Of a stretch of DNA of 64,000 nucleotides, positions 10,555 to 43,167 are shown in pieces. The position numbers and the translations under genes were made by a program. The stretch lies in assembly GCA_027262695.1 (NCBI GenBank), contig GCA_027262695.1_4722.1; one strand, given 5' to 3'. This stretch comes from a phage. The notes under the pieces are model-generated. The model ran no database searches and was not told the DNA's origin. It saw nothing but the letters and a program-made list of their open reading frames with translations. Numbering within the stretch: the stretch's first letter is position 1; each line of letters opens with the position of its first letter.

Positions 10555-10854
10555 TTAGGGTTTAGGTTCCGTTTTGTATTGTGCGAGTAATGCGTTGATC
10601 TGCTCCCGTTGTTCTTTTAAGCATGTGGGAAGCTGGTCTTCCCGTACCGTTCCGATTTCCAACGTGATGTACCAACGTTGTTCGGAAGCCTGCCATTGAA
10701 AACTGCTCTGTAACCGAAGGATGTTGGGATCGCGTACCTTGCTTGCGCTGTAGCGATCGAACCAATCCAGATAAGCGGCTTTTCCTTCCTCGTCGGCAAC
10801 GTAACGCTGCACGCTGTTCTTGCCTTTGTTCTCGTATCCCGTGATGCGGATCAT
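10555..10854 (-). CDS. hypothetical small protein coupled to paralog C
   Basis: Start at ATG 10854 forms ATGA overlap with stop of 10851-11627. Confidence 0.4.
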   Translation of the reverse strand: MIRITGYENKGKNSVQRYVADEEGKAAYLDWFDRYSASKVRDPNILRLQSSFQWQASEQRWYITLEIGTVREDQLPTCLKEQREQINALLAQYKTEPKP

Positions 10855-11627: not shown

Positions 11628-11677
11628 GGATAAAGTTCCTTGTTTTCACGTTGTTTGATTAACGTATTGATTTCTGA

Positions 11678-11712
11678 TGATGATAACATCGATATGTTTG
11701 CTGTTATCAAGA
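11678..11712 (-). promoter_or_regulatory. candidate sigma70-like promoter for the minus-strand early gene array
   Basis: On minus strand TTGATA, about 17 nt spacer, then GTTATCAT about 50 nt upstream of the 11627 start; by eye only. Confidence 0.25.
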
Positions 11713-11879
11713 AGGTAATATAGCCGTGAAAGGATTTGTATTACAGAAAGGATATTTGTTTTTAAGAAGGGACGATGGTTATCAGGAAGGAGGTTATCGG
11801 TAGGTGTAGGAGAGGGGATTTCAAGGAAGGTTTAAGAGGATAGTTATGTTGTTTAGTTGAGAGTTTGCTAAAATAGCTT

Positions 11880-12070
11880 TATCGTTATCTTAGTTTATCT
11901 GTGTATTCGTTAGGTATCTTGATTTATCTTCTTAATGATCTTTTCAAAAGTGTTATCATGGTTATCTTAGGTTATGTCTTAATTGTTTTATCTTGGTATG
12001 TTTAAGTTGTTTTAAGTTATCTGTTTATCTATCTTGTTATCTTGTTTAAGTTGTTAATGGCTTATCTTCA
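11880..12070. repeat. iteron-like cluster: at least 9 copies of TTATCT plus two copies of GTTTAAGTTGTT
   Basis: Direct repeats read from sequence inside a roughly 950-bp ORF-poor AT-rich island (11628-12584). Confidence 0.55.
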
Positions 12071-12073
12071 AAA

Positions 12074-12130
12074 CAATGGATAACATGTGTTTACTACGCT
12101 CGTTGAGTTATAACTCAACGGTAACACATG
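12074..12130. repeat. nested palindrome ACATGTGTT...CGTTGAGTTATAACTCAACG...AACACATGT
   Basis: Perfect 20-bp palindrome CGTTGAGTTA/TAACTCAACG flanked by 9-bp outer inverted repeat. Confidence 0.5.
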
Positions 12131-12536
12131 TCATCTGTGCATTACACTACGTTACATGCTTATCAACGTTTTGTGAAGACAAAACGTTCAACTCTAAAAA
12201 ACCATTTGTGATACTCTTCTTCACGTTGTTCATCAGAGTATCTCGTCTATCCTCACTGCGTTCGCATACGACATCACCGTTATACGCTAACGCTACGCTT
12301 ATAGCTTATAACTCTAAGGATAAAAACATAAACTCGCTTCGCTCGTTTAGTTTTTCTTTTTCTTAGAGTTATCATGTTGCTCGTCTCTAAAGGACTTCGC
12401 TCCTCCCCCGTCCCCCGAAGGGGCCGAGGTCGTGGAAATTTTACTTTCCAAATACATTTACAACGTCTGTAAACTTTTACCGACACATACCTAATCTTAT
12501 ATTTAAAATTAGAAAAAGAGAAAATACGAACATAAC

Positions 12537-12566
12537 CCTCCTCCAACCCGGAAGGGAAGGAGGAGG
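12537..12566. terminator. hairpin CCTCCTCC-AA-CCC-GGAA-GGG-AA-GGAGGAGG (canonical family member)
   Basis: Read directly; immediately downstream of stop of 12585-13478. Confidence 0.55.
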
Positions 12567-12584
12567 TGATAACAGTCTATTTAA

Positions 12585-13478
12585 TTAATCGGAAGTGTTA
12601 TAACCGAATACTGCTTTACCGTAGGTGTGAGTACCATCACTGAGTGACAATACTAATACGTGGTTATACGCATCGTTAACACCCTTGTCGGTAGAATCGG
12701 TGGTAACACCGTTGTAGACAAAGGTAGCTGATTGCAGATTGGTTTTCAGTTCATTGATGATATCATCACTTACACCAGTCTGCTCTTTAATCAGAGTAGT
12801 CAGGTTACCTGCTAAGCTTGCGTCGAGATTTACTTCGTTGCCAGTAATAGCTTGTAAACCTGAAGCGTAAGTACTGAAGTCTAACGGATAGGTTAACAGA
12901 CGTGCTGACGTTTTGGTACCATTGCCTTCATCAACGTAGGTTAAGTTACCCAGGTTGGTAACCTTGATAATGTTAGACAGATCCAGCGTTGTGTTATAAA
13001 CTTTAACTTGAACAGAACCATACCAAGCCAACGAATCTTCTTTGGCTTCCAGGGTAACGGTTTGGATACCTGACTGATCAAAGGTAACGGGATTAGATAA
13101 CGTTTCAGCTTTGATGTCTTTTGTTTTATCCAGGAACTTCTCGCCGGAAGGCGTAACCATACCGTAGCGTTGAGCTACGAGGTCGACCACGTCACCGATG
13201 GTGGTGTTTGCTTCAACACTAACGCGCACCGCGATCTTCTGGAACCATTTAGCCAGATCCAGACGATGATAGGTGACATCGCGGGTATTGAAGTACGGTG
13301 TACCATCACCCGGACTGAGTGTTAATGTTGCTGCACTATCAGAATCGCTTTTGGATTTAAGAACGTATTTGAGATCAGTGTATTTGAAACTGGCTCCCGT
13401 ATCGGCGTTAAGCTGGTTGATCTCATCAACGATAAGTTGCCACGGTGTTTTCAAAGTAAGTGATACTCGACTTGACAT
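12585..13478 (-). CDS. putative tail/baseplate-associated structural protein, member of 4-copy paralog family
   Basis: 297 aa; shares Y-x-R-[IL]-D-L and LAW-[YT]-GSV motifs with 24541-25446, 26363-27214, 27225-28160. Confidence 0.55.
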   Translation of the reverse strand: MSSRVSLTLKTPWQLIVDEINQLNADTGASFKYTDLKYVLKSKSDSDSAATLTLSPGDGTPYFNTRDVTYHRLDLAKWFQKIAVRVSVEANTTIGDVVDLVAQRYGMVTPSGEKFLDKTKDIKAETLSNPVTFDQSGIQTVTLEAKEDSLAWYGSVQVKVYNTTLDLSNIIKVTNLGNLTYVDEGNGTKTSARLLTYPLDFSTYASGLQAITGNEVNLDASLAGNLTTLIKEQTGVSDDIINELKTNLQSATFVYNGVTTDSTDKGVNDAYNHVLVLSLSDGTHTYGKAVFGYNTSD

Positions 13479-28219: not shown

Positions 28220-30511
28220 TTAAGCATCCTCGGTAGGTAATGGTTTCACAATCAAACGATTGAGCGGATTCGATAGGCGCATACTGATAGGCTTATACGC
28301 AGCATGATTCGTTTCGCTCAATACAGCGGATCGGAAGCGACCTTCAACACGTTTATAGATTGGGTTTATCCAAAGACCCTGAAGACCCGGTTGACGGAAA
28401 CGTTGTTCGATAGGTTTAATCGGTTTCACGGTCAAACCACGTACCGCTTCTGACGGTATACGTTCGCTGATGTCGCGAGGCGCTCGACCTGGGAATGGAG
28501 CCAACCAGAGACCATCCAGCGGGTTCTTACGGAAACGCAACGAGATAGGATCGCTGATAACCTGCGCCCAGTATTGCGTGCTGAACCGTACCGTCTGGGT
28601 ATTCTCGTAACCGCTGCAATCGCACCAGGTGGGTTTCGGCGGGGCTTCTAAGCTCTCAACCGCGGATTCACGCCAGTTCGTCATTGGATTGTTATCATGG
28701 ACGAATTTGATAACTTCCGTAGCCTGGTTATCCGTATCGTGAACGTTTGCTTGTGCCCAGTCCTCCCACAGTTCTTCACTGCCGCTTACCAAACTTGAAC
28801 CGAGTCGAACGGCAATTTTGTTCAGTGGTTTGATCGGATCACTGTTGATTGTCTGGATAAAATGGATGGTGTAACTGCTCAGTGTCTTAAGCAGCTGTAG
28901 CATCCCGTATTGAATATCCTTAAGACTGGTAACGTCTTCCAAGTCTTGACCGGTGGCCTTCGTGAAGATATCGAGAGCCAGAATCCCTGCTTCTTCTTGA
29001 CTGATTGCGTCAAGTTCCCAATCCATCGCTAAGAACCATTCCTTGTAAAGCTGTCCAATACCGAAATCAACCCCAACGTCCATGTAGAAGTTTTCAACGA
29101 TCGCTTCAGCCATACCTCGAGCCTGGTAATGCTCCTGGAGCTGATACATGAACTGATGACGACGCCAACCCTGGTAAATTTCGGTAACGATGTTAAGAAA
29201 TTCCTCAGTACTGACGATAGGACGTAATGTCACCTGTTTATCTAAACACCACCAGATCAGTTTGTCAGGAATGATAACCGGATCGGTAATGCTACGAAGA
29301 TGCTCGAATGTCGGTAACGTTAAAACGCGGACGTGGTTAGCATGGATCTTAGGCACTTCAATCAGCGTCATACCCATCGAATAGTTCAGCAAATACAAGA
29401 ATAGCTTGTAGGCATCTTTCATCGACATGGTCATGGTATCACCCGTCACCGGGTTGGTGGTGGTTAACCGTGACTGATACATGCCGATGGAACTCAGATG
29501 GATCCATTCGTTGAGCAAGAAATCGTATTTCGGGTATAACTCACTGTCGGTAAGATCTTCCGCTTCACTTTCCAATACCTTGGTTGTTAAGGTATTATTG
29601 TCATGCATCGACATCTTCTCTATTGTGCGGTTAAGCTCGGTATAATACTCCGCTTCGTTATCCCGCGCTAGAGGGAACTGTTGTTGCATTACGGTGGTGA
29701 CCTTACGACGTACCGTCCCGTTACCAACGATCTCTTGAAGGTTAAGCGGTTTACGTTCCATGTAAACAGTGGGTTTTAACGTCTGAGGTATTTCGGAAGC
29801 GTCTTGTTTGATCGAAAACGCACCGATTGGAATGCCACGATCGGTTAATACCTTTTGAATGAGCTTATCGTAGTTTTCCGTTCTACCCATGTTCCTTTCG
29901 ACGTAAGCGATGTTACGATAGAACCAGAGCATTTGGGATTCTGTCATGTATCGCTTGAATCGATCAAGACCTTGATGGCTTGCCAGATAACTCCAGATAT
30001 GGAAGCTATGGGCATAATGGGTATGACAGTTTTCCCAACGAATACCTTTTATCATCTCAGGTATTTGTGTGAATAGAATAGCATATAACGCAGGCCAATG
30101 AAGCATATCGACGCTTTCATATGCCGGATGTTCCCAGCGTCTGAAGTAGTCGTCGATTTCTTGCTGTAATCGTGGAATAAGGTTGGCTTCGCGTGATTCA
30201 ACCTCACGGGTATCGTACCAGAGAATCTCGTGATTGCGTGCAGCAATGGCTTTCTCGATATCGATGGGGTTAAGGATACCCAAGATCAACATACGTTGTT
30301 CCGGGTACCGTGCAATTAGACGATTGAAATAATCTCCGCCGTACGCGTATTCCCTTGCGGTCATGCGGTGCCGTAGCATGTTTTCCTTGGTGAACTCGAT
30401 CTCTTCGAGCGTATCCAGGGAATTGACGGTCATCATTGTCTGACAAGGATGATACTCGCCAGCGAGATTCATGTAGTATAACCACGTGCGTGGGTCGTCC
30501 CCGACGGCCAT
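28220..30511 (-). CDS. hypothetical large protein with C-terminal tandem R-F-R / NPL / GLW repeats
   Basis: ORF track extends to 30700 but would overlap the divergent gene start at 30659; internal ATG 30511 used; start uncertain. Confidence 0.5.
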   Translation of the reverse strand: MAVGDDPRTWLYYMNLAGEYHPCQTMMTVNSLDTLEEIEFTKENMLRHRMTAREYAYGGDYFNRLIARYPEQRMLILGILNPIDIEKAIAARNHEILWYDTREVESREANLIPRLQQEIDDYFRRWEHPAYESVDMLHWPALYAILFTQIPEMIKGIRWENCHTHYAHSFHIWSYLASHQGLDRFKRYMTESQMLWFYRNIAYVERNMGRTENYDKLIQKVLTDRGIPIGAFSIKQDASEIPQTLKPTVYMERKPLNLQEIVGNGTVRRKVTTVMQQQFPLARDNEAEYYTELNRTIEKMSMHDNNTLTTKVLESEAEDLTDSELYPKYDFLLNEWIHLSSIGMYQSRLTTTNPVTGDTMTMSMKDAYKLFLYLLNYSMGMTLIEVPKIHANHVRVLTLPTFEHLRSITDPVIIPDKLIWWCLDKQVTLRPIVSTEEFLNIVTEIYQGWRRHQFMYQLQEHYQARGMAEAIVENFYMDVGVDFGIGQLYKEWFLAMDWELDAISQEEAGILALDIFTKATGQDLEDVTSLKDIQYGMLQLLKTLSSYTIHFIQTINSDPIKPLNKIAVRLGSSLVSGSEELWEDWAQANVHDTDNQATEVIKFVHDNNPMTNWRESAVESLEAPPKPTWCDCSGYENTQTVRFSTQYWAQVISDPISLRFRKNPLDGLWLAPFPGRAPRDISERIPSEAVRGLTVKPIKPIEQRFRQPGLQGLWINPIYKRVEGRFRSAVLSETNHAAYKPISMRLSNPLNRLIVKPLPTEDA

Positions 30512-30658
30512 CTGGTAGACTTCGGAAACCTTGAGGTTTAACCGTTCTGCCGTGATGTCGCTTTTAATAATCAGGGTGTCCGTTAGACGCTGCACGCTTT
30601 CCGAATAAAGCTGATAGTCAGTGTTGGACACGATCGGTCCTCCAAGGAGCCAGTGTAA

Positions 30659-33577
30659 ATGAACGATATAAATAAAGGGCGCGTCGCCCTCGAACGTCAA
30701 ATGAGCAATAATGACGTTGCGAAGGCACTCATGAACAAATTTGTCGCTCCTGCTCCGCAGTCACGTCTTTATAACACACGTGAAGCGGAAGGAGCGAGCG
30801 GTCGTTTCGGGTTAGTTGTTCCCGACCAGATGACGATGAACACGGTGACGCGTGCGACCGCAACAAACGTCGAGGATAATAAAAACATCCTCGAGTTGTT
30901 CCCTGAACTTAAACGCGTGATGCAGATCTATGTTGCCGCGTTGACGAACCCTAACGATCTTAAGACGGTCGAGATGTTCATCGACAGCGAAGATTTCCCC
31001 GGCAGAGTCGCAGAAATCGTTCAGCCGATGATCGATACCATCGACACGCATTTTAAGAATATCTATAAAATAAAGACGCTTATCCCTCGTATCATCGAAG
31101 ATGTCTTCTTTATCAAGGGCAGCTATAACTTCGTTGTTCTGCCTGAAAGCACGCTCGATCGTGCTATTAACGGCAACGGCCAACTGAAACTCGAAGAATA
31201 CGGATTTAAAAACAATCATTTCGCCAGCTGGGGGCTGCTGGGGAATGACAGCCGTATACGCAGTCAACATCAGTTACCGACAACGGTTTCGATGGAAGAT
31301 TATTTTTCAGGCGTTAACGAAACCATCCCGTACGATCCGGTTGTCCGTATCGATAGCATCAAGTTTACCAACACGATGCTCCGTGATAAAGACGGTAAAT
31401 TCATTGAAGCGAAGGTCGATATTCCGGATATGGTTACGGTTGTTGATAACCCAGACATCCTTCGCATGCCGATTTTACACCAACGTCGTGCGTCAACAGC
31501 CGTGCAACGTGCATTACGTGCAAACACCTTAGGCGGTAACGGCCTGGTGACGTTATCAGGCGATCCGACGCAAACCGCGAATCGACGTGAGCTGACACAA
31601 GAGCAAGTTAATGAGATCTGGAATAAACTAAACATCCAACGTCATACCAAGGTATCGCCTGTGTACGCACTAGCAACCCCGGATACCCTTGACCGTCAAA
31701 GTGTCGGTCATCCTGGTGTGATGCACGTACCACCTGAGTCATTAGAACCGGTTCATGCGCCTGGCGATCCAGAGAACCATATCGGTTATCTCGTCCAGCT
31801 GGATGAATTCGGTTACCCAGTACGTTTGGTTGAAGATGCTGCGTATTACAAACAGCTGGAAGGTCGACTGTCGAAGATCACGGCGGATATTGCCGGTACA
31901 TCAAGCAACGGAATGGCGAGTGAGATGATCGGGGCAGCGAAGAACATGGTTCAAGGTACGTCGTGTAACCAAGTCGATATGTCAGCGTTTGTCTCGTCGT
32001 ACGAATCACTGATGCAACGTTATATCGTTGAACGTATCGTTAACGGTTACCTCGGCAGTGCGGTAGAAATCGGTGCAACGTCGTCGTTCTATCTGTCGAT
32101 GCTTGCCCGCAGTCTTGCTCACAAGCAAACCCGTGTTTTGTTTATTCCTCGTGAGATGGTGACATACATCGCCTACGAATACAACAAATACGGGATTGGA
32201 CGTTCCTTGCTTGAAAGTACGAAGATGATCTCTTCGCAACGCGCGATGCTCATGGTTCAGGAACTGATGGCGAAAATCAAAAGTTCGTTGAACTATACGA
32301 CGCTGAGCGTGATGCTCGAAGACACCGATAGAAACCCGGTTGATACCGTTGAGCAGGCATTGCACAGTTTTGCTCGTGTTTATCAATCTGGTTTCCCGTT
32401 GGGTGAAACCAACCCAATGGATATCATCAATGCATACGAACGAAGCTCGATTCGATTGAAGGTTGAAGGGAACAACCCACGCTTCCCGAAACTGAACACC
32501 GACGTTAGCGTTGAACAACGTAACTACCAATCCCCGGATGATGAGCTGATGGATCGTTACCGTCGTGATCATTTCATGGGTCTGGGTGTTTCTCCAGAGA
32601 TCGTTGATACGTCCTATCAATCTGAATTCGCGGCGTCGGTGATTACGGCTAACGCGATGCAAGAGAAACAGTTCACGGTTTGTCGTGAGGTCGTCACGAA
32701 TGGCTTAACTGATCACATCAAGAAGTATACGGCTTACAGTCCTGTGCTTCTGACGTCGTTACGCAATACCGTTCGCGCGAATATGTCAAAGCTCTCTCAA
32801 GCGCAGCTGCAACAGCTCTTTGGTAGCGACTTCGAAAACGGTGTTATTCGTAACGTGAACGCGTATCAGGAGATTGATGATCGATCGGTGACAATGGATC
32901 TGGATTACACCAAACCGGAAGTCCAGGAAGTGATTGCCGACGCTTATGTCTCCATGTTCTTAAACAGCTTGCAGGTACGTTTACCGGATAGCAACGCGCG
33001 TCGCCTTGAAGATCAGGTACGTGAATATAATCAGTACAAGGAAGCGATTACAGCACAACTTGATGATTATTTAACACCGGATTATGTCATGGGTCTGGGT
33101 GGGGTCGATGAAACAACCCTGCAGATGATTCGAGCGTGCATCATTGGTACGGCGATGAGGACATGGGCGAAAGAAAACAACTTCAATCAGGAGCTGGCTG
33201 ATCTCTTTAGTCTCGACGATAAGAAGAATGCCGTCCAGGATTGGAAACGTGCATCCATGGAGCATATTGAAATCATGGGTAAATGCATGGGTGATTTCGC
33301 ACTCTATATCCAAAACCTGACGAAGCAAATCGAAGAGAAGATGGGCGACCAAGCACAAGACGGTAGCGTTTCATCTGACGGCTCATGGTCATCGGATTCC
33401 GGTTCGGATAGCGGTTCTTCCGATGATTTCGGTGGTGGTGATGACTTTGGTGGCGACGACGATTTCGGAATGGAAGAAACCGAAGAATCCACCGAGGAAA
33501 CCACTACGGAAGAAACAACCGATGAAACTGGTGATAATGCCGCATCAGAAGACGATACCGCAGGTGATATTGTCTAA
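30659..33577 (+). CDS. portal-like protein with acidic low-complexity C-terminal tail (call from size and context only)
   Basis: 972 aa; AGGAG RBS 9 nt upstream; C-terminal DDFGGGDDFGGDDDFGMEETEESTEE. Confidence 0.35.
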   Translation: MNDINKGRVALERQMSNNDVAKALMNKFVAPAPQSRLYNTREAEGASGRFGLVVPDQMTMNTVTRATATNVEDNKNILELFPELKRVMQIYVAALTNPNDLKTVEMFIDSEDFPGRVAEIVQPMIDTIDTHFKNIYKIKTLIPRIIEDVFFIKGSYNFVVLPESTLDRAINGNGQLKLEEYGFKNNHFASWGLLGNDSRIRSQHQLPTTVSMEDYFSGVNETIPYDPVVRIDSIKFTNTMLRDKDGKFIEAKVDIPDMVTVVDNPDILRMPILHQRRASTAVQRALRANTLGGNGLVTLSGDPTQTANRRELTQEQVNEIWNKLNIQRHTKVSPVYALATPDTLDRQSVGHPGVMHVPPESLEPVHAPGDPENHIGYLVQLDEFGYPVRLVEDAAYYKQLEGRLSKITADIAGTSSNGMASEMIGAAKNMVQGTSCNQVDMSAFVSSYESLMQRYIVERIVNGYLGSAVEIGATSSFYLSMLARSLAHKQTRVLFIPREMVTYIAYEYNKYGIGRSLLESTKMISSQRAMLMVQELMAKIKSSLNYTTLSVMLEDTDRNPVDTVEQALHSFARVYQSGFPLGETNPMDIINAYERSSIRLKVEGNNPRFPKLNTDVSVEQRNYQSPDDELMDRYRRDHFMGLGVSPEIVDTSYQSEFAASVITANAMQEKQFTVCREVVTNGLTDHIKKYTAYSPVLLTSLRNTVRANMSKLSQAQLQQLFGSDFENGVIRNVNAYQEIDDRSVTMDLDYTKPEVQEVIADAYVSMFLNSLQVRLPDSNARRLEDQVREYNQYKEAITAQLDDYLTPDYVMGLGGVDETTLQMIRACIIGTAMRTWAKENNFNQELADLFSLDDKKNAVQDWKRASMEHIEIMGKCMGDFALYIQNLTKQIEEKMGDQAQDGSVSSDGSWSSDSGSDSGSSDDFGGGDDFGGDDDFGMEETEESTEETTTEETTDETGDNAASEDDTAGDIV

Positions 33578-33611
33578 CCGTTCGTAAAAAAAAAAAATAA
33601 CACATAGTTAA

Positions 33612-33645
33612 CCTTCTCCCCAACCCGGAAGGGAAGGGGAGAAGG
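33612..33645. terminator. hairpin CCTTCTCCCC-AA-CCC-GGAA-GGG-AA-GGGGAGAAGG, preceded by A11 run
   Basis: Same core as canonical copy with compensatory stem changes; A-run at 33586-33596. Confidence 0.55.
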
Positions 33646-33662
33646 GCTATGCGCTATTTAAC

Positions 33663-33938
33663 TTATCTCGAGTTTAACCACGATTCAATTGTGGTGAGGT
33701 TGCTTCGCAATACGCGCCAACTAGGGTGTGGTGGGATCACAGCACCTTTGTCGATTACGGTTAGCTGAGCCTGGTACTTCTGTTTCATACGGGCTACCGT
33801 AGCGCTTACCGAAAGGAAAAGCTGGTAACGTTCGTACACCGTCAGTTCATCTTCCCGTCGAACTGCTCCTGTTGCTAACGTAATTTCGCGTAAGTCCTTT
33901 GCGTCCATCGGGACAGTAATGAGTTTATAATGACTCAT
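33663..33938 (-). CDS. hypothetical small protein
   Basis: 91 aa ORF. Confidence 0.4.
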   Translation of the reverse strand: MSHYKLITVPMDAKDLREITLATGAVRREDELTVYERYQLFLSVSATVARMKQKYQAQLTVIDKGAVIPPHPSWRVLRSNLTTIESWLNSR

Positions 33939-33988
33939 AGGGGTTTCCTTATCAACCAGGGTATTGCGTTAACAATACCCATCGTCAA

Positions 33989-36580
33989 TTACTGTTCGTC
34001 GCGTTCCAACAGGTACTCGGAAGCCGTAACACCGTTTACAGTACGGATGGCTTTCAGACGTGTATCATCGTTCAGAATCACGGTAACAGACTGCAGACCT
34101 TTTACCTTGGTTTCGAAGGTTTTGAATACCTGGTCTAACATACGTGCGATGCTTGGGTTGGTGGCAGCTGATGCGTGGGTATACCCACTCTGATTAAGTT
34201 TCAGAATCTTCGCGTTGGTTGGTACACGAACGATAACATGCGGACGCATAGCGAACACGCTGTGGTTGAACCAGTACGCATCCGGGCTGTCTTCATCGGT
34301 CACGAGGTCTGGATGGGTCTGCATATCTTCAGCTGCAGCATCCGCCAAACGACGTTCGATTTCGTCAGCATCCAGAGAACCATCTTTCTCCAGCTCGGCA
34401 CGATACTCATCCATGATTGCTGCACGACGCTCTTGATTTGCGACCATCTTATCATGAGCCGCATTCAGGTAGTCGTTCATGCTGTAAAGCTCTGCCATGG
34501 AAAGACGGATGTTCCACTGACCACCACCGTCACGATTGCAGTAGAGGCATTTCAACATATTGCCCCAGGTGTGATAGCAACGGGTGAACTCGTCTTCGAT
34601 GAACTTCTGATCCATTTTAAGTTCGTTGATCAGCCAGCTATACAGCTCACCGACATCATCTACGAAGCTTGCAATGGTGGTTTCAGAGAAGTTCTTAGGT
34701 ACAACACGCTTGATCCATTTGTTGATGTCTTTGGTCATGCTGTCGTTCAGGAAATGCCAGATACGCAGAGGGATAACCTCTCTGTGTTGTTGCATGACCT
34801 GACGATAGGCTGACACACCTTCAATATGACCTTTATCAATAGACAGGGCATCCAGGAATTCCTGGATAGCATCAAGCTGTTTATCGGTGTAGGTTCCCAG
34901 GTAGGAATTGACTGTGGTCAGGAACGCCAAAGCATCGTTCTGGTTGACGTCGGTATTGGTCTGCTGGATGATCGCAACCGTCGCTTTGGTTTCAGCGTCT
35001 TCGATGCTGGATGCCGGAACCATGTCAGTGACAGTGAACAGTTTCATCTCACGCTGTTCGCCAACAACAATCGGTTCACGTCTAACCGGTTTGTTCAGGC
35101 TAACACGCACAACTTCTGCTTGCGCGATACGATCCCATTCTGCCATTTCCAGCTCCGCCATACGACGTGCGGTTGGATCTGTTTCAAGTTGAATGTATTC
35201 CATTTCTTCCACCGTAAGTGAGGTAATATCAACAATGGTTTCATGAAGAATTCCATTTTCGTCGATGCGAGCACGACGAGCGAATTGCCTGAAGTCATAC
35301 GCGGTTGGCCAACGGCTATCAGGTGCGTAGTCTTTGGCTTTCAGACGCATTTGCATGAATTCTTCATGGTGAACAACACGACCGTATTGCTTCGCATCTT
35401 CGGTCGCATCAAGAGGGTCAACCGTTTTGGTTACCGTTGCAGGACGTACGCTACGTACCGGCTCAGGTTTTACCTTCACGGTTTCAGGTTGAGTAGGCGC
35501 TTTCTGCTCAGCCTTAACATGCCATTTCGGTTCTTCGTACTGCTCAGCGAATTGCTCAGCTACCGCAAAGATATCGTTGATACCGCCGATATCTCCATCC
35601 GGATGGGTTGAGTAAATACGCGTTTGTGGTGCTTCCCGACGTGTTGCTGCCGGAGCAGGTTTATCGTCAACTGGGTCATCATCACCAACATCGTACAAAC
35701 GGTTGAACGCACACTCCTTCGAATCCATATACGAAGGTGCTTGCTGCTGAACAACCGTTGGTCGAGGTTGTGTGCCGTATCCTGGCATTGTCGGAGCCAT
35801 ACCACGCATAACCGCTGGATTAGGTTGGTACTGCGGCTGAGGATAAGCTCCACCGTACGTGTTATACACAGGTTGTTGAGGTTGACCGTATCCGGCGTTG
35901 ACCATCGCGTTTGCTTGCGGTCCGCGATAGGTCATTCCCAACTGCGTTACCTGCGCTTTTAACGCACGTGTCTTCTGCGCGATTTGATTCAGAGTCCCAC
36001 CTTGATTCAGTTGTGTATACTTATTCGCTGCTTCCGGGTTAATGCGCGTTAATTCCTTTGCACGATAATACTCAGGATATTGATTGGCCTCAAAGAGCCA
36101 CTGTACAAGATGCATAAGTATCGTTGTACGTACCGCGGTGTCGATAATCTGATCGACTGAAGCATTCTGAGGCGCTGGGTTGATGTAAGAGAATACGTTC
36201 CAGCAGCAGTCTTCAACAAGTGACTCCATCGCCTCGTTGTTATTGGCGTAACGTGCCACGAACTGTGTTTGAATATCGTCTTGCTGGGCATGCTCTTTCA
36301 GGATAACAAAGATAGCCTGACGGATTTTGACGATATTTCCTTCGTTGGTGATGAACTGGTAGTTCTGCTGATATGCTGGATTAGGTTGGTATTGCGGTGG
36401 TTGTTGGTAACCGCCCCCGTATTGTGGATAAGCCGGTTGCTGGGGTTGGTACGGAGGTTGTTGATATTGCGGTTGCTGGTACTGTTGTTGACGCACCTGG
36501 TCAGCTGCAAATCGAACCGTGCTTGCGTACGGGTTCTCGCTATAGCCCATTTGTTGGTAAATGTTGTTACCGTTATACAT
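33989..36580 (-). CDS. hypothetical head-module protein with Q/P/Y-rich low-complexity N-terminus
   Basis: 863 aa; N-terminal QQQYQQPQYQQPPYQPQQPAYPQYGGGYQQPPQYQPNPAYQQNYQ. Confidence 0.55.
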   Translation of the reverse strand: MYNGNNIYQQMGYSENPYASTVRFAADQVRQQQYQQPQYQQPPYQPQQPAYPQYGGGYQQPPQYQPNPAYQQNYQFITNEGNIVKIRQAIFVILKEHAQQDDIQTQFVARYANNNEAMESLVEDCCWNVFSYINPAPQNASVDQIIDTAVRTTILMHLVQWLFEANQYPEYYRAKELTRINPEAANKYTQLNQGGTLNQIAQKTRALKAQVTQLGMTYRGPQANAMVNAGYGQPQQPVYNTYGGAYPQPQYQPNPAVMRGMAPTMPGYGTQPRPTVVQQQAPSYMDSKECAFNRLYDVGDDDPVDDKPAPAATRREAPQTRIYSTHPDGDIGGINDIFAVAEQFAEQYEEPKWHVKAEQKAPTQPETVKVKPEPVRSVRPATVTKTVDPLDATEDAKQYGRVVHHEEFMQMRLKAKDYAPDSRWPTAYDFRQFARRARIDENGILHETIVDITSLTVEEMEYIQLETDPTARRMAELEMAEWDRIAQAEVVRVSLNKPVRREPIVVGEQREMKLFTVTDMVPASSIEDAETKATVAIIQQTNTDVNQNDALAFLTTVNSYLGTYTDKQLDAIQEFLDALSIDKGHIEGVSAYRQVMQQHREVIPLRIWHFLNDSMTKDINKWIKRVVPKNFSETTIASFVDDVGELYSWLINELKMDQKFIEDEFTRCYHTWGNMLKCLYCNRDGGGQWNIRLSMAELYSMNDYLNAAHDKMVANQERRAAIMDEYRAELEKDGSLDADEIERRLADAAAEDMQTHPDLVTDEDSPDAYWFNHSVFAMRPHVIVRVPTNAKILKLNQSGYTHASAATNPSIARMLDQVFKTFETKVKGLQSVTVILNDDTRLKAIRTVNGVTASEYLLERDEQ

Positions 36581-36614
36581 CTTCTTACAATCCTTTTATT
36601 TATTCGATTAGGTG

Positions 36615-38414
36615 TCAATCGATTATGTCACGATCGTTAATTTCTACAATTTCTTCATCGAATCGACCGACGTCTTTCTTCAAGCCTGCGTTTGTTGCTG
36701 CAACGTCATTTGCGATTTGTGGGGTAACGATTAACCGACCACGATCGTCAATCGGTGCGTACATACTGAACTTCTGGCGTCCGGTTGGTTCGGAGTGCGG
36801 AAGATTCAGATAGCTCGCGCAGAACGGGATGGAACCGCTCACCAAACGACTCTCGTCAGCCAATGCGGCACCGCCCGCATTTTGACTCTGGAGAACAACA
36901 TGTGTACTTACTTTGAACAGCATGCAGTCACCAGGTGATTGAATCGAGGTTGCCACTTTCTCGCGTTTATCACGATTGCTCTGGATGTTGAGAATCGCTT
37001 CTGTTGCAACTTGATTGCGTAACGCTTTTTGTACATCGCGATTGGTCATCTCTTTCCGGTTGTTCTGTCGTTTACCACGTTCAGTGGTTTTAAGATGGAA
37101 CCCCAGTTTAAAGATGCTCTTACGCACATCCTCCATGACGTATTCCAACACCATCAGTTCCTTACCGAACATCGTCGTGGTGTCGACACGACTCATTTCG
37201 ATAGTGACGTTATCAATCAAATACGCCATGAATTCGTAGAAGTCGTCGCACGGAATATTTTCCTGTTTGAACTTCTTCTGTTGAATTTCGTCAACGTAAA
37301 GATCGAGGCTGTCGATGTGGTGGTTTACATCACGCAACAAACGCGCATCCGCGTTGTTGTTATTAAAGATAATCAAACCGAGTAGCGTACGCCAGTGGTC
37401 TGGCGCATTCGCGAACTCTTCAACCGGATAGTCTTCTGGAAAACGATCGTAATAACGGTCGATGAGATAGAGGAACGCACCGACAAGACCGAGCACAATA
37501 CGTTCCGTGCCGCCACGTCTTACCGCGATTTGAATATCAGGATGTTTATAACGTACCGCGCTAACGCTACGACTCTTACCGCTTTTGCTAATACTAAAGC
37601 CTTTAGGAATAACGCCCATGGTGCGATAGATTACCCATTGGTCGCGCGGAAAATCACGTTCAGCGAGATTCCGTCCGGTTATTGCTTCGACGCCTGCAAA
37701 ACGCCGGAAACATTCACCCACGCCATATTTCGCAAAGAGATAATGGCCCAACGTGGTTACGCTGGTGTGGTTGATGTTGTCCCCGTTCACCTTGCTTTGT
37801 TTGGTAAGGTGATAGATTTGCGACCAGGGCAATGACAAGTAATGTCGATAATCATTACCGGTTGGTGTATCATTGCTCAGGAACTGATACGGCGTACGCT
37901 TAACGGTGATTTTGTCACGCGGAAGCATGATGAACGCCATGTCTTTCGTGTAACTGATTACCGGGTCAGCAAGCACCGCACTGAGAATGAAGTTCGCACC
38001 ACGTAGACGCATCTTGCCACCCTGACCTACCGCAGGCAATAGGAGAGGATGCCGGATGATGCAGTAATCCTTGCCGGGTTCACGACGGTCACCTGCTTCC
38101 ATCGCGCCATACCAGCGGAATTCCAGCATCACCATGAACACATCGGAAGGCGCAAGGTCGAACGTCAGCTTACCGCTATCCTTCCCTTTGGTTTTCTTTC
38201 CTCCGCTTAAGTAGTGAAACTGTTCGCGGGCCATACAACGACGTAGGCCATGATACACCAGATCCTTAGGTAAACTATCTTTGCTGTTCCGCCAAAGACG
38301 ATCGACGTAGGACTCAACATCTTGCATCTTATCGACAACGATGTTGCGTGCTATCTTCTCGTTCATCTTCGGTGCAAGCTCAGCGACAGCTTTGCAGAAT
38401 CTAGGATCCATCAC
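36615..38414 (-). CDS. hypothetical head-module protein
   Basis: 599 aa ORF. Confidence 0.5.
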   Translation of the reverse strand: MMDPRFCKAVAELAPKMNEKIARNIVVDKMQDVESYVDRLWRNSKDSLPKDLVYHGLRRCMAREQFHYLSGGKKTKGKDSGKLTFDLAPSDVFMVMLEFRWYGAMEAGDRREPGKDYCIIRHPLLLPAVGQGGKMRLRGANFILSAVLADPVISYTKDMAFIMLPRDKITVKRTPYQFLSNDTPTGNDYRHYLSLPWSQIYHLTKQSKVNGDNINHTSVTTLGHYLFAKYGVGECFRRFAGVEAITGRNLAERDFPRDQWVIYRTMGVIPKGFSISKSGKSRSVSAVRYKHPDIQIAVRRGGTERIVLGLVGAFLYLIDRYYDRFPEDYPVEEFANAPDHWRTLLGLIIFNNNNADARLLRDVNHHIDSLDLYVDEIQQKKFKQENIPCDDFYEFMAYLIDNVTIEMSRVDTTTMFGKELMVLEYVMEDVRKSIFKLGFHLKTTERGKRQNNRKEMTNRDVQKALRNQVATEAILNIQSNRDKREKVATSIQSPGDCMLFKVSTHVVLQSQNAGGAALADESRLVSGSIPFCASYLNLPHSEPTGRQKFSMYAPIDDRGRLIVTPQIANDVAATNAGLKKDVGRFDEEIVEINDRDIID

Positions 38415-38450
38415 ACACTCCTTACAGAAAGTTGCTTAAGCAGATTAAAG

Positions 38451-39833
38451 TTATTTCTTCGATGACGCCTTCTCAAGAATCTTGAAAAAGGTCATACCTA
38501 TACCGACAACGGCTGCGGTGATGCTTGCTGCAGCTTTCCAGACATCGACGTTACGTTGACGTCGTGCTTCTTCCGCCTCACGTTGTCTTTTTGCCTCTTC
38601 ATCACGTCGGCGTATTTCAGCAGCGAATTCCTCATGCTTACGTTTCGCGTCTTCGTCTCGGCGACGCATTTCAGCGATAAGTTCATCGTGCTTACGTTTC
38701 GCGTCTTCATCGCGACGTTTGAGTTCAGCCAGATGGTCATCTTGCATTTGTCGCCGAAGTTCGTCCTGACGTTTTATTTCGGCTCTATGCTGCTCATCAC
38801 GCAGTTTTGCTTCAGCGCGATGGGTCTCTTGCATCCGTTCGATGACGTCTTTATGTTCATCCGCCATACGTCGCATTTCAGCCATCACCCCTTTAAGGGT
38901 TTCTTCTGATGACTTACGTTCGTAGCTACGCTGGTCGAAATCATTTTTGTAGGCTTCCTTCTGGATGGGATCGCGCCAATGCAATGCCGATTCGCGGGTT
39001 GGAAAAACATTGTATTTCCACATTTCTTTTTCCAAATCTTCTACCGGTACGAAGACGGAATCATTATTCCCGAAGGTAACCAACATCCCTGGAGCACCTG
39101 CCCCGTTCGTTGGTTTTATTTCGAACGCTTTCCCCAAGACGTTAACCCATAAGCTGTACGGATTATGGAAGTCTGGTGGCGTCCAATGGATGGTGAGCTG
39201 TGTTCCGAGAATCCGGAACCCCTCTGGTTTTCCTGTTAAACTTCGCGCACATGTTGCGATATAGGGGTGATCAATCCCTTTCGTAACATGGTCAGCGCTT
39301 TTGTATTCTCCTTTAACTTTTACGATTGCCACGTTAATTTGCGCGACATACACAGGTTGATTAAAATTTAAGGCTGTTAGGTCTATTCGACATATCTCGT
39401 CCAAGGTGTCGTACCAATCTTCCTGGTCGAGCAACCTGGGTTTTCTCTCGACGCACGTAATGCGTCGGATATGGGGTTTTCTTACCGCATAACCGCTTCG
39501 GTTTTTAACGCCCAGTATATCCCGTCGTCTACCGTCGTAGACGAAGTTCTTGAACGCGCCATTCGCATTAGATATGTCATGGCTGTCAACTATTACAGGA
39601 CTACGAAATTTTGAACGTCGTACGATCCTGAATGTGTTACCCTCTTCGACCCTACCTGGAATGTATTGGAACATATTGTCGGATGTAATGACCAATACCG
39701 TATGCCCAGACTCATTAATACAACCCCACCCTAACTCTAAGTCATATAACGGTTCCTGGTATCCGTCGATGCTATACGTGCCTGTGCCATCCCACGGCTC
39801 AAACGGCGTATCGCAAACCGGCATAGAGGACAT
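38451..39833 (-). CDS. hypothetical protein: globular N-domain, E/R/K-rich repeat helix, C-terminal hydrophobic anchor
   Basis: 460 aa; repeats RRDEDAKRKHDELIAEMRRRDEDAKRKHEEFAAEIRRRDEEAKRQ then AAASITAAVVGIGMTFF. Confidence 0.55.
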   Translation of the reverse strand: MSSMPVCDTPFEPWDGTGTYSIDGYQEPLYDLELGWGCINESGHTVLVITSDNMFQYIPGRVEEGNTFRIVRRSKFRSPVIVDSHDISNANGAFKNFVYDGRRRDILGVKNRSGYAVRKPHIRRITCVERKPRLLDQEDWYDTLDEICRIDLTALNFNQPVYVAQINVAIVKVKGEYKSADHVTKGIDHPYIATCARSLTGKPEGFRILGTQLTIHWTPPDFHNPYSLWVNVLGKAFEIKPTNGAGAPGMLVTFGNNDSVFVPVEDLEKEMWKYNVFPTRESALHWRDPIQKEAYKNDFDQRSYERKSSEETLKGVMAEMRRMADEHKDVIERMQETHRAEAKLRDEQHRAEIKRQDELRRQMQDDHLAELKRRDEDAKRKHDELIAEMRRRDEDAKRKHEEFAAEIRRRDEEAKRQREAEEARRQRNVDVWKAAASITAAVVGIGMTFFKILEKASSKK

Positions 39834-40045
39834 TGATTATCCTCCCTCAAACAGACAACATACATGCATAATGCACGTCCCTTTTCTTGTTATCATCACA
39901 ACGACAGTCGACGGTTTCAGCATCATTCTTAGCGCGAGAACGACCTTACGTGTTGTCTATGCCTTTTTTCATTGAAGGCTTCTGTCACCTAGGTAATGTA
40001 AGCGTCAAATTTTTTCTAATCTAACCCAGCATAACAGCATAATAA

Positions 40046-40074
40046 CCTCCCTCAGCCCGTAAGGACCGAGGGAG
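40046..40074. terminator. hairpin CCTCCCTC...GAGGGAGG downstream of putative capsid gene
   Basis: 8-bp outer stem with inner CCGTAAGG. Confidence 0.45.
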
Positions 40075-40174
40075 GTTGACTTATGTATCACGGTGCCGGA
40101 TGAATGTCCGGTGTAATGAAACCATCCGCAACGTTGTTTTCAAGAACTTCATCCAACGAAGCAGCTCCGGTATT

Positions 40175-42397
40175 TCAGTTAGTCTGAACCGGCAGCTTGA
40201 TGTTTTCAGTGTAGACCTTACGCAGGTTCACAACGTTGATCAGACCCAGCAGCGGGCAGTTGTTCACGAAACGGCAGCGCGGCTGAACCATGGTTTCTTT
40301 AGAAACCTGACCGTTACGAGTAACCTGAGCAACGGATACCAGTTCCGGTACGTACAGGAACATACCGAAGGTCAGCGGATCCGGAGAACCCTGGATACCA
40401 CGAGACAGGGTCACGAAGATCTTGTCGCGCAACATGACGTTCGGGTTGTCTACAACCACGAAGTTGAAGCTTACACCCACGGTGCGGAAGTCACCGTCGG
40501 TCTGCAGGAACTGCGGGATGTAGTTGTCGGTTGCTACTACGCAACGCGGTTTCTCATCAGCGTTGGAAGACAGCAGCTGCAGAGCTGGCTGATAACCAGA
40601 CTCGGAGTACATGCGGTACGCCATTTCACGAATCACGTTCATGATCGCAGCGGATACTTCAGCACGACGTTCTGCAGTGGTGGTACCCTGAACGGATTTC
40701 TCCAGGTCCAGATCGATTTCTTCGAACCACGGACGAATCAGGTAACGACCGAAACCTTCGATCTGAATGTCACCGAACTGACGGAAGCGAGAAGTTGCAA
40801 CCGCTTTCAGGGCGTCTTTGTAGCTGAACAGTTTCTCAACCATCAGGTTGTCGAAACGTGCGTTAGCTGCTTGGATCAGAACATCCAGGTCAGCAGCGTT
40901 TTCTTCCCAATCCAGCGGACGAGGAATGGAGAACGGAGCCAGCAGGCCGATTGCGTAACGTTCTTGCTTCATGTTGAAGTCAAGATGTTTACCGCGTTCA
41001 CGACGGTTGCTGTTGTTACGACGGATACGCAGTTCGTAACCCACCAGTTTGAAGCTCAGGTCTTCAGCCAGATCTTTGAATTCCTGGCTCTTACGCGGTT
41101 GTTCGATGTTGTCCTGGTCAACCAGACGATACAGTTCAGCGGTAGCGCCATTAACACGCAGACCCGCTTTCTCTACGTTGGAAGAACCGTAAACTTCGAT
41201 CGCCAGCTGAGCAGCAGATTTCGCATCGATGATGTCCTGCAGCGCTTCAGCTTTCGCACCTTTAACGTCAACGGTGTTCTCATCAACGAAGATGGAGTGG
41301 GTGTCGAACGCCAGGGTCATTTTGCGGAAGTCGCCTTCCAGGGATTTCTGGAAACCGTTGGTGATCAGACCGGATACGTCGAACGGAACGTAAGAGGTTT
41401 TGCTGTGCTTGGTGGATTTAATTTCCACCAGGATTTTGGTCAGCGTGATCTGAGCATCCAGCGCGTCAGTGTTGTCGCTGTAACCGTTAGCCAGAATGCT
41501 ATCGTCTTCAGCGATACCGATCATGTCGATCAGTTTATCAACCGCCAGGTAAGACGTTTTGTAAGTAACGCCTTTGATTTCGATGTCGCGCGGAGCAACG
41601 ATGGTTTTATCAACGAAGTACTGCGCGTTAGCATCGTCAGCACGGTAGATCGGATGCAGATCGGTCACGTCGTTGGACAGAACGTCGTTGTACATGAACG
41701 CATCCAGCAGCGGACGACGTACCCAATCAGCCGGAGTACCATCACCGTTACGACGCAGGTGGTTGAACACCAGCGGACGACGGAAGGAAACGTCATAACC
41801 GATCTGGTTCGGAGCCAGAACGATGGTGTTGTACAGTTCGTTACCCATGCGGCTCAGACGAGACGCCTTCACGTTGAACACAACGGAGTACGGCATCATG
41901 TCACGCAGTTCTTTCTGGTCGTAGGACAGCTGAACCAGTTCTTCAGATTCACAACCGCAGGAATCCGCAGCCATCATGACGAAGTTAGCGCTGTCAACAT
42001 CACGGCCGGACGGCGAGGTGCTGATGTTCATGGAACGTGCTTGTTTAGCATATTCCACCGGGTTGCCATGTGCCAGCATGATCAGCGCTGCAGCGCGAGC
42101 CTGCTGTGCGTTCATGGTGAACAGCTGTTCTTCAATACGTTGCTTCTCTTCCGGAGTTGTGGTTTCGAAGCCCAGCATGGACAGAACCGGTTCTTCAGCT
42201 TTACGGATGTCGCTGCTGAAGCTCTTAACATCCATTTCGTTAACCAGTTTGTCCATGGATTTGAAATCAACCTTAGAAGCAGATTCCATAGACAGGAAGG
42301 TGTTTTCCAGACCTTTGTCTGCTGGTTTGCTACCATTAGCGGTCAGGAACTGGCGAGTGGCCGCGACCTGTTGGCTAAGAAGGGTTTTATCATTCAT
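40175..42397 (-). CDS. putative major capsid protein (large HK97-fold type, by size and codon usage)
   Basis: 740 aa; strongest host-optimal codon bias in window, producing a 774-codon stop-free antisense ORF; AAGGA RBS. Confidence 0.45.
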   Translation of the reverse strand: MNDKTLLSQQVAATRQFLTANGSKPADKGLENTFLSMESASKVDFKSMDKLVNEMDVKSFSSDIRKAEEPVLSMLGFETTTPEEKQRIEEQLFTMNAQQARAAALIMLAHGNPVEYAKQARSMNISTSPSGRDVDSANFVMMAADSCGCESEELVQLSYDQKELRDMMPYSVVFNVKASRLSRMGNELYNTIVLAPNQIGYDVSFRRPLVFNHLRRNGDGTPADWVRRPLLDAFMYNDVLSNDVTDLHPIYRADDANAQYFVDKTIVAPRDIEIKGVTYKTSYLAVDKLIDMIGIAEDDSILANGYSDNTDALDAQITLTKILVEIKSTKHSKTSYVPFDVSGLITNGFQKSLEGDFRKMTLAFDTHSIFVDENTVDVKGAKAEALQDIIDAKSAAQLAIEVYGSSNVEKAGLRVNGATAELYRLVDQDNIEQPRKSQEFKDLAEDLSFKLVGYELRIRRNNSNRRERGKHLDFNMKQERYAIGLLAPFSIPRPLDWEENAADLDVLIQAANARFDNLMVEKLFSYKDALKAVATSRFRQFGDIQIEGFGRYLIRPWFEEIDLDLEKSVQGTTTAERRAEVSAAIMNVIREMAYRMYSESGYQPALQLLSSNADEKPRCVVATDNYIPQFLQTDGDFRTVGVSFNFVVVDNPNVMLRDKIFVTLSRGIQGSPDPLTFGMFLYVPELVSVAQVTRNGQVSKETMVQPRCRFVNNCPLLGLINVVNLRKVYTENIKLPVQTN

Positions 42398-42546
42398 TGA
42401 AAGTATCCTTTACAGATTTAACTTATATAAGTCGGTCGATAGACCATAGCGTACACGCGTGCATGCGCCACTATAGTATCAGTAAACACTTACCGTTATT
42501 GAGGTTGTGATACAACACTAAAAATGCCGCATAACTTTTCCCTACG
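42398..42546 (-). promoter_or_regulatory. upstream region of putative capsid gene with TTATATAAGT motif
   Basis: Minus-strand TTATATAAGT about 25 nt upstream of start; late-promoter-like by analogy only. Confidence 0.25.
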
Positions 42547-43167
42547 TCACAAACGACGCAGGCGATAATGGATGGAACGATTGGTGCAATATGAACGGAA
42601 CAGCGGTAATTGCGCAACTTCCGCAAGACTCATATTAATTCGCAGATGTTCGATAACCGCGCTGTAGTTATCGGCGATACGATCGCTCAGTAACTCTTCT
42701 GCCAATAAAGGAAGACAATCGACAACGATGGCGATCACATCCTCATTAACATAACGCACCCGAACATTGAGTGGACGTTTGTCTGGGCCGTAAGTTGGAT
42801 CCGCCAAACGACGTTCAATATCGCGTGGATAGCTCGTCAGTAAATGGTAATAACCATTGTCATAACGATTGATGTACTCACACAGCACATCAACATTCTT
42901 CTCTGGCGGCAAACCTGTTTCGTCATAGTGATACGCAAACATACCACCAAGCAGGTTGTTAAGATGAACAGCCGCATTCGTTTGTTCGTGTTCTTTCGTA
43001 ATGAAGAAAGGCACGTTCTGAGCTGCGAAATAAAAACCTACATCATTGGGCGATAGTATGCCGAAAAGACTTTTAGGATCCAACAGCACCTGTAAGTCAT
43101 CACGCGCATTTCGCATAATCGCGTGTTCTACCCAATTCGGAACGACGAGATATCGGAGTTCCTTCAT
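42547..43167 (-). CDS. hypothetical protein
   Basis: 206 aa ORF divergent from 43207 gene. Confidence 0.5.
   Translation of the reverse strand: MKELRYLVVPNWVEHAIMRNARDDLQVLLDPKSLFGILSPNDVGFYFAAQNVPFFITKEHEQTNAAVHLNNLLGGMFAYHYDETGLPPEKNVDVLCEYINRYDNGYYHLLTSYPRDIERRLADPTYGPDKRPLNVRVRYVNEDVIAIVVDCLPLLAEELLSDRIADNYSAVIEHLRINMSLAEVAQLPLFRSYCTNRSIHYRLRRL

Follow-up and report, generated by a model that had tools for sequence, protein, structure and literature searches.

The gene and its locus

The DNA analysed here is a 64,000-nucleotide stretch of phage sequence (the window; assembly GCA_027262695.1, contig GCA_027262695.1_4722.1) from what its sequence identifies as a Goslar-like, nucleus-forming jumbo phage of E. 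coli. Between its major capsid protein (MCP) and portal genes lies an open reading frame (ORF) of 863 amino acids (aa), 81% identical in DNA and 80% in protein to Goslar gp38, which opens with a low-complexity tract dominated by glutamine, proline and tyrosine (Q/P/Y). Profile comparisons and gene order place this protein in the JADA family, as a divergent member and the likely Goslar-lineage ortholog of phiKZ gp124 and Pa36 gp316. The coordinates of the gene, its parts and its neighbours are collected in Table 1.

Table 1. Coordinates of the 863-aa gene, the regions of its product and the neighbouring genes.
Feature	Coordinates	Strand	Description
863-aa ORF (plus stop)	33989-36580	-	Ortholog of Goslar gp38; probable divergent member of the phiKZ gp124/JADA family
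Residues 1-76	36350-36580	-	N-terminal extension
Residues 1-30	36491-36580	-	MYNGNNIYQQMGYSENPYASTVRFAADQVR; moderately complex peptide, Y/N-rich, conserved among Goslar-like phages
Residues 31-76	36353-36490	-	Core Q/P/Y low-complexity tract; Q19 P10 Y9 G3 A2 N2 F1
Residues 77-224	35909-36352	-	Predicted helical N-terminal domain, positional equivalent of the JADA N-domain; AlphaFold2 helices 68-215 (poor model), folded side of the charge-hydropathy plot
Residues 225-285	35726-35908	-	Second Q/P/Y/G patch, opening the inter-domain linker; strongly conserved in Goslar-like phages
Residues 286-389	35414-35725	-	Rest of the predicted disordered linker, with acidic and P/V/K/T-rich stretches; pLDDT 22-31
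Residues 390-863	33992-35413	-	C-terminal domain homologous to the JADA dimer domain by hhalign; 9rp3_A top match
Non-virion RNA polymerase (nvRNAP) subunit, 599 aa	36615-38414	-	phiKZ gp123 homologue; phrog_2943, E 4e-120
460-aa protein	38451-39833	-	Positional counterpart of phiKZ gp122
Major capsid protein	40175-42397		phiKZ type; Pfam PF25620, E 4.5e-217
Portal gene	30659-33577	+	Opposite strand to the 863-aa gene

Assignment to the JADA family

JADA (Pa36 gp316, of which phiKZ gp124 is the ortholog) is an essential, early and abundant protein composed of an N-domain (residues 1-170), a disordered linker and a C-domain (residues 270-721), which forms a ring-like dimer (PDB 9RP3) and through which JADA activates Avs5 (10.1101/2025.07.08.663546, PMC12931631). 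On infection, JADA forms foci at early-infection (EPI) vesicles, and its gene lies invariantly directly downstream of that for the nvRNAP subunit; Goslar enters the same study through a staining method only, not as a JADA carrier (PMC12931631). The phiKZ protein is also early, and phage transcription at 30 min is strongly disturbed when it is knocked down (PMC12571901).

The relationship of the window protein to this family is not visible in ordinary searches. Using tblastn against 50,697 phage records, we found Goslar only, while Pfam and PHROGs scans returned no family and an exhaustive phmmer search of 1.84 billion representatives gave only the Goslar cluster and one further protein, P0005. 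A word-indexed homologue search yielded four close relatives, a viral-contig scan three Goslar-like loci, and profile searches among the best 8000 candidates added only P0006, P0007 and P0008. The lead to the family came from synteny.

The gp123-like nvRNAP gene, whose product has homologues in 235 phage records by tblastn (phiKZ gp123 and 234 further records), ends 34 nucleotides (nt) upstream of the 863-aa ORF on the same strand, and nothing resembling a terminator was detected in the minus-strand sequence that separates these genes. An ORF of 690-890 aa likewise follows the gp123 homologue in phiKZ (gp124), 201phi2-1 (gp204), Eowyn, PCH45, Ea35-70, RP12, RSL2, FBKp24, Proteus phage 10, LucasX and Haymo; the adjacency to a gp123-like gene that marks JADA genes was found in the window and in 12 other phages or contigs. 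The surrounding order (MCP, gp122-like gene, gp123-like nvRNAP subunit, this gene, one or more small ORFs, here one of 91 aa, and a portal gene encoded on the other strand) is in essence common to the window, Goslar, Eowyn, PCH45, Ea35-70, RP12, FBKp24, Proteus phage 10, LucasX, Haymo and the P0006 contig. phiKZ, 201phi2-1 and RSL2 likewise have the gene after the nvRNAP subunit, but with other genes downstream.

A separate observation concerns Photobacterium phage PDCC-1 (Gorgonvirinae), where small ORFs (89-245 aa; 5711-8087 of its locus) lie downstream of the polymerase subunit and no 700-900-aa gene is found. There, contrary to the adjacency described as invariant, JADA may have been split, replaced or lost.

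The homology was tested directly by comparison of profiles. A profile of the window protein, Goslar gp38 and P0005 aligned by hhalign with one of 11 positional homologues, including phiKZ gp124, at 99.1% (E 1.6e-18) over 374 columns spanning the whole C-domain, and with phiKZ gp124 alone at 67% (E 5e-5), collinearly. By sequence profile, 9rp3_A ranked first of 177,635 PDB sequences at an E value below significance (1.3). A model of the C-domain (residues 385-863, built from 8 sequences, pLDDT 50.3) had 9rp3_A and B as its top Foldseek matches among 350,542 chains, at values that are likewise below significance and come from a poor model (E 0.04, TM 0.16-0.19). Taken together, these matches to phiKZ gp124 and 9RP3 argue for a divergent JADA-family member.

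The succession of N-domain, disordered linker and C-domain is also predicted for the window protein, and both its composition and its charge-hydropathy profile agree with these three parts. In a full-length AlphaFold2 model that is poor overall (mean pLDDT 38.7), the N-domain scores better than its surroundings within the N-terminal half (10-residue means of 44-67 over residues 71-190), a low-confidence helix appears at residues 19-34, and values stay below 50 for residues 1-74 and 191-390. Residues 228-390 have almost no predicted structure (pLDDT 22-31) and are followed by a helical/beta C-domain which, relative to phiKZ gp124, contains an insert of about 80 residues (roughly 692-771).

Composition of the N-terminal tract

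The first 75 or so residues had been described in an earlier note on this DNA as almost only Q, P, Y, G and N. This is accurate for residues 31-76 (QQQYQQPQYQQPPYQPQQPAYPQYGGGYQQPPQYQPNPAYQQNYQF), where Q makes up 41%, P 22%, Y 20% and N 4%, so that 38 of the 46 residues (83%) are Q/P/Y and 43 are Q/P/Y/G/N; charged residues are lacking altogether, and a Tyr or Phe occurs about every 5 residues. It does not extend to residues 1-30, whose bias is moderate (47% Q/P/Y/G/N). Its composition is unusual: among 5000 shuffled versions of the protein, the richest 46-residue segment held 16.3 Q/P/Y on average and 23 at most, and the next-best ORF reaches 18, which makes the tract unique in the window. 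The second, shorter Q/P/Y/G patch is present as well; residues 229-285 contain 18% P, 16% Q, 11% G and 11% Y, and the patch has the motif PQYQPNPA in common with the first tract.

The repetitiveness of the underlying DNA, on the other hand, had been overstated. The units named occur twice each within the tract (GGTTGGTA and GGTTGCTGG), and a repeat search found 2-3 imperfect, dispersed copies (71-82% identity) that link both patches. Tandem Repeats Finder reported no tandem repeat in the tract DNA even at a score of 30, and the synonymous codons for Gln, Pro and Tyr are mixed. An array generated by slippage was rejected on these grounds. Three overlapping ORFs across the tract (36269-36640 on the plus strand, 36298-36618 on the minus strand and 36397-36813 on the plus strand) were set aside as artefacts of composition, the indels and substitution ratios fitting the annotated frame.

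Conservation and divergence

The tract, whose absence or frameshift in close relatives the earlier note had held to imply a lack of protein-level selection, is kept in frame in all four of them. Relative to Goslar, it differs by in-frame indels of 9, 3 and 1 codons, giving a length difference of 13 residues. Its ratio of nonsynonymous to synonymous substitution rates (dN/dS) is 0.125 over 33 alignable codons, a value that is indicative only, with dS saturated and the alignment ambiguous; the rest of the gene is similar (0.09-0.15 versus Goslar). Residues 1-30 are invariant at 23 of 30 positions in five sequences (dN/dS 0.09 versus Goslar), and the second patch is nearly invariant in the close relatives (dN/dS 0.10). 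The low dN/dS of the tract, the in-frame indels, the mixed codons and the lack of a tandem DNA repeat point to selection at the protein level, acting on composition rather than on sequence.

The only more distant relatives, P0005 and P0006 (33-40% identity; uncultured phage contig, same gene order), do not have the N-terminal tract. They start instead with a short G/N-rich segment and keep the QPQQP core of the second patch, which marks the tract as a lineage-specific addition. We therefore regard it as a real, selected low-complexity N-terminus and as a lineage-specific variant of the JADA architecture, for which a mechanism is proposed below.

Within its neighbourhood (28220-43167), the 863-aa gene is the one most diverged from Goslar, with parts at 66-83% nt identity; the gp35-like protein, portal, polymerase subunit and capsid genes are at 87-96%, and the adjoining polymerase subunit has 98.8% protein identity. 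Within the 863-aa gene, divergence peaks in the N-terminal coding region (65.8% nt identity). As dN/dS is low, this divergence has the look of an allele exchanged by recombination, not of positive selection, and to find the highest divergence of the neighbourhood here is notable for a protein whose family, by analogy with JADA, would be sensed by Avs5.

One of the alleles recovered (L002, IMGVR_UViG_3300011560_000001, 10001-12589) is a mosaic. Its 5' part (about residues 1-285) is near-identical to the window, with 97.7-99.6% nt identity over residues 1-224 and a dS of 0.02-0.06, while its C-domain is close to Goslar (dS 0.106, versus 0.855 to the window). The switch point falls inside the disordered linker, at residues 286-389.

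Low-complexity regions and aromatic spacing across the family

Low-complexity linkers occur in nearly all members, with spacers that differ between Q/P/Y, Q/P/M, G/R/Y/S and R/D/G/Y. Eowyn has a Q/P/Y linker of about 100 residues, Ea35-70 gp4 an N-terminal Q/M/P tract and an internal Q/P tract, and the Proteus phage 10 protein (892 aa) an N-terminal Q/P/F tract (QPQFQQPQFQPQFQQ) with internal Q/P tracts. The linker is G/R/Y/S in LucasX, R/D/G(Y)-rich in FBKp24, Centimanus, Haymo, PCH45 and RSL2, and G/Q/M/P or Q/S/T in phiKZ and 201phi2-1.

The linkers of the FBKp24, Centimanus, PCH45, Haymo, RSL2 and LucasX homologues (L010, P0007, P0008, L007, L015, L016 and L012) are RG/RGG- and RD-rich, for example DRRRYDDDRRGYSRDDRGRGGFGRG and GGRGYGNQSFQGGRSYGGNGGRTSYGG. 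Such a composition reads as typical of nucleic-acid-binding disordered regions and is sharply unlike the uncharged Q/P/Y of the Goslar-like phages.

Residues 1-76 contain 15 aromatics, 2-10 residues apart and never adjacent. The standard deviation of their spacing is 1.83, compared to 3.89 in shuffles, and only 0.24% of shuffles were as even. The corresponding fraction was 1.3% for Goslar, 2.2% for Eowyn, 2.3% for LucasX and 0.3% for FBKp24, with a weaker signal in Haymo (7.8%). The Proteus phage 10 tract has a stretch in which Phe recurs every 4-5 residues, but overall its aromatics are no more even than in shuffles; those of Ea35-70 are too few for the comparison. The disordered regions of the family thus often, though not universally, appear to keep regularly spaced aromatics in otherwise interchangeable spacers, in the Goslar lineage also at the N-terminus.

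On the charge-hydropathy plot, residues 31-76 fall far into the disordered side, and the Q/P/Y tail is predicted to be intrinsically disordered.

Proposed role of the tract

Since the 15 aromatics are more evenly spaced than in 99.8% of shuffles, self-association or polyvalent binding is the most plausible role of the tract. Our preferred reading, which we put forward tentatively and at somewhat less than even odds, is that the Q/P/Y tail of this Goslar-lineage JADA ortholog acts as a disordered sticker-and-spacer segment through which the protein gains weak, multivalent binding. An uncharged Q/P/Y sequence of the kind that opens the linker (residues 229-285) recurs in Goslar-like phages as an additional N-terminal tail (residues 31-76), preceded by a conserved 30-residue peptide. 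In this tail, tyrosines at even intervals would serve as weak stickers, with Q/P as the spacer. With two tails and two linkers, a C-domain dimer would have four weakly adhesive tracts, and this multivalency could bring copies of the protein, or the protein and its partners, together at the EPI vesicle or the nascent nucleus. The comparisons above show the family assignment, the architecture, the composition, the selection on it and the recurrence of such tracts in the family; the disorder, the self- or hetero-association and this site of action in the window phage are what we infer.

Several points weigh against this reading. The localisation, timing and essentiality of JADA were established for Pseudomonas phages (Pa36, phiKZ) and would reach Goslar-like phages by way of the family only. 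The N-domain did not match the JADA N-domain significantly (hhalign probability 14%), a loose N-x-[FY]-x-N ... [FY] motif in common being recognisable by eye only. Absence of the tail from P0005 and P0006 means that it is dispensable for the core function. The linkers of phiKZ and 201phi2-1 have few aromatics and no even spacing, so that the property is not universal. Segment boundaries for the spacing comparison were chosen by us and several segments were tried, and even spacing is equally expected by descent alone from a decayed 5-residue repeat. Finally, with mean pLDDT values of 38.7 and 50.3, both AlphaFold models are of low quality throughout, so that a low pLDDT in them is weak evidence for disorder.

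The main rival, which we consider rather unlikely but take seriously, is a passive tether: the Q/P/Y segment would be an extended, proline-stiffened spacer that presents residues 1-30 as a short docking peptide to a partner such as the shell, the polymerase or the import machinery, with tyrosines that do not associate. Residues 1-30 are indeed better conserved than the tract (23/30 invariant, dN/dS 0.09) and overlap the helix predicted at residues 19-34, and the 13-residue variation in tract length among close relatives is what a spacer would allow. The linker of the host protein FtsK has nearly the same Q/P/Y sequence (PQYQQPQYQQPQQPVA), a composition that serves as a flexible connector in E. 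coli, and the disordered linker of E. coli SSB weakly matches the second patch. A pure spacer, however, does not need evenly spaced aromatics; a similar Q/P/Y tract also lies inside this protein, at a place where it has no terminal peptide to present; and no separate peptide precedes the N-terminal tracts of Ea35-70 and Proteus phage 10, which open practically at residue 1.

The sticker-and-spacer reading can be taken a step further, to a proposal that we regard as speculative and improbable in its full form. JADA proteins in general would be condensate-forming scaffolds, whose dimeric C-domains and evenly aromatic low-complexity regions nucleate a liquid-like hub at the EPI vesicle. If this were true, non-virion polymerase, transcripts or shell precursors would be concentrated there during the transition from vesicle to nucleus, with a spacer chemistry that varies by lineage (Q/P, G/R/S, R/D/G) and a valency that the extra Q/P/Y tail of Goslar-like phages raises. 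The tail might also let an essential protein that is sensed by Avs5 vary the surface it exposes, in a gene that already diverges more than any other of its neighbourhood.

Across nucleus-forming jumbo phages, JADA is a conserved and essential protein and the trigger of Avs5 immunity. The placement of Goslar gp38 and the window protein in its family, which ordinary searches miss, is new and extends the family to phages of E. coli, where CRISPRi-ART genetics and cryo-electron tomography are established. The aromatic pattern offers a testable handle on how JADA gathers at the early-infection vesicle.

Virion association and other explanations

The earlier note had called the product a head-module protein. 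We find no support for this premise: the JADA family is early, essential and associated with EPI vesicles (PMC12931631), and a position among head genes does not make the protein structural, so that a likely mis-annotation is corrected here. The case for a virion protein (of the head, or injected), whose tail would be a capsid-targeting, scaffolding-like or protease-removed propeptide, draws on the location of the gene between the major capsid and portal genes and on the detection of Goslar gp038 in CsCl-purified virions with 26 peptides, at about 25 copies (17-39) by label-free quantification, more than the 7-21 copies of the virion RNA polymerase subunits (10.64898/2026.04.21.720040 Table S4). 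The same preparation, however, contained chimallin (126 copies), PhuZ (171), ChmC (78), thymidylate synthase (20) and a DEAD-box helicase (11) (10.64898/2026.04.21.720040 Table S4); co-purifying proteins of the infected cell thus reach the level of gp038. Because non-virion proteins are equally or more abundant, packaging is not demonstrated in Goslar, and low-copy calls of virion association from this table need independent confirmation. Goslar gp38 is also absent from the 28 modelled structural proteins and from the main text of that study (10.64898/2026.04.21.720040), phiKZ gp124 and 201phi2-1 gp204 have no virion annotation, unlike neighbouring genes, and the Churi homologue is listed as non-structural and expressed at 15 min (PMC11849849). 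The early timing of the phiKZ protein and the effect of its knockdown on phage transcription (PMC12571901) point the same way. Looked up for signs of N-terminal processing, the text of the Goslar mass-spectrometry supplement gave no peptides; the tract, having no Lys or Arg, would be invisible to trypsin anyway. On balance, packaging of the 863-aa protein in the virion is unlikely, and a virion role for the tail has little probability.

Still less probable is that the tract mimics the Q/P/Y linker of the host protein FtsK, or a linker of SSB or of another divisome protein, in order to engage the partners of that linker. The best E. coli DNA matches to the tract do lie in ftsK, though not significantly, the FtsK linker contains the same 9-residue string YQQPQYQQP, and phiKZ gp058, gp124 and gp287 are reported at second hand to bind host DnaX and FtsZ (PMC11849849, citing Van den Bossche 2014). 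Yet the matches have E values of 0.1-6, short low-complexity identities of this kind are expected by chance, and the linkers of other family members have quite different compositions irrespective of host; the DnaX and FtsZ interaction, moreover, concerns a Pseudomonas phage protein without the tract. Acquisition of the tract from the host was rejected, the ftsK matches being at E 0.1 or worse.

The term prion-like holds for the tract only as a class of composition. Against the uncharged, Q/N-rich stretch of about 60 residues or more that defines such domains, the fit is partial: the core is rich in Q (41%) and Y (20%) and free of charge, but has 46 residues and 4% N. The low proline compatible with amyloid is not found, 10 of the 46 residues (22%) being proline, spread throughout. 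Proline at this level argues against amyloid or prion formation, which makes amyloid-type prion behaviour unlikely. Equally remote is the broader idea that the tract is either a functionless by-product of slippage or a strict amyloid-forming prion domain: lineage specificity, variable length, the strong divergence of the N-terminal coding region from Goslar and a Q/N/Y/G-rich class resembling yeast prion domains would suit it, but the proline content disfavours beta-rich amyloid, the DNA has no tandem repeat and mixed codons, dN/dS is low (at saturated dS) with all indels in frame, and analogous tracts recur in other genera.

Neighbouring genes

Cryo-electron microscopy of Goslar identified gp36 as the portal and gp41 as the capsid protein (10.64898/2026.04.21.720040). 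The portal of the window ends in an acidic S/D/G/E/T low-complexity tail of about 75 residues (...SSDGSWSSDSGSDSGSSDDFGGGDDFGGDDDFGMEETEESTEETTTEETTDETGDN...), a second strongly biased tract within the same gene cluster. The 460-aa protein contains charged near-repeats (RRDEDAKRKHDELIAEMRRRDEDAKRKHEEFAAEIRRRDEEAKR) followed by a hydrophobic, membrane-anchor-like C-terminus (VWKAAASITAAVVGIGMTFFKIL), and its gene is relatively diverged from Goslar (82% nt identity); knockdown of phiKZ gp122 also disturbs phage transcription (PMC12571901). A scan for promoters and terminators around the 863-aa gene gave hits at chance level and is uninformative for promoters of phage polymerases.

Comparison with known systems

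The window protein resembles JADA and phiKZ gp124 in its position directly downstream of the gp123-like nvRNAP subunit on the same strand, and in the series of a helical N-domain, a long low-complexity linker and a C-domain of about 450 aa. It differs in length (863 versus 721 aa), in its additional 76-residue N-terminal extension and in its linker, which is longer (about 165 versus about 100 residues) and Q/P/Y-rich rather than G/Q/M/P-rich. Pairwise identity is only about 15-25%, and the relationship is missed by tblastn, PHROGs and Pfam.

Ea35-70 gp4 and the Proteus phage 10 protein are encoded at the same locus and composed, like the window protein, of an N-terminal Q/P tract, a helical domain and a second internal Q/P tract. 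The Proteus phage 10 segment QPQFQQPQFQPQFQQPQFQQ is the Phe counterpart of QPQYQQPPYQPQQ in the window. Unlike the window protein, these two have Met or Phe in place of Tyr and tracts that begin almost at residue 1; the tracts cannot be aligned, and direct comparison of the sequences with the window protein gave nothing significant.

The linker of FtsK, a protein of the phage's own host, has the same uncharged Q/P/Y vocabulary, and the G/Q/P linker of SSB weakly matches the second patch. Both are flexible disordered connectors. They lie between domains, whereas the phage tract is terminal; the FtsK linker is a clear tandem 13-mer, whereas the tract has no tandem repeat, and neither DNA nor protein homology is significant (E 0.1-6).

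Compared with the Sup35 N domain (PQGGYQQYN repeats) and FUS-type domains, the tract is much shorter (46-76 residues), contains 22% proline and, in its core, 4% Asn, and belongs to a bacterial virus. It is like them in being uncharged and Q/N/Y/G-rich, with tyrosines that are regularly spaced and never adjacent, the sticker-spacer pattern of phase-separating domains.

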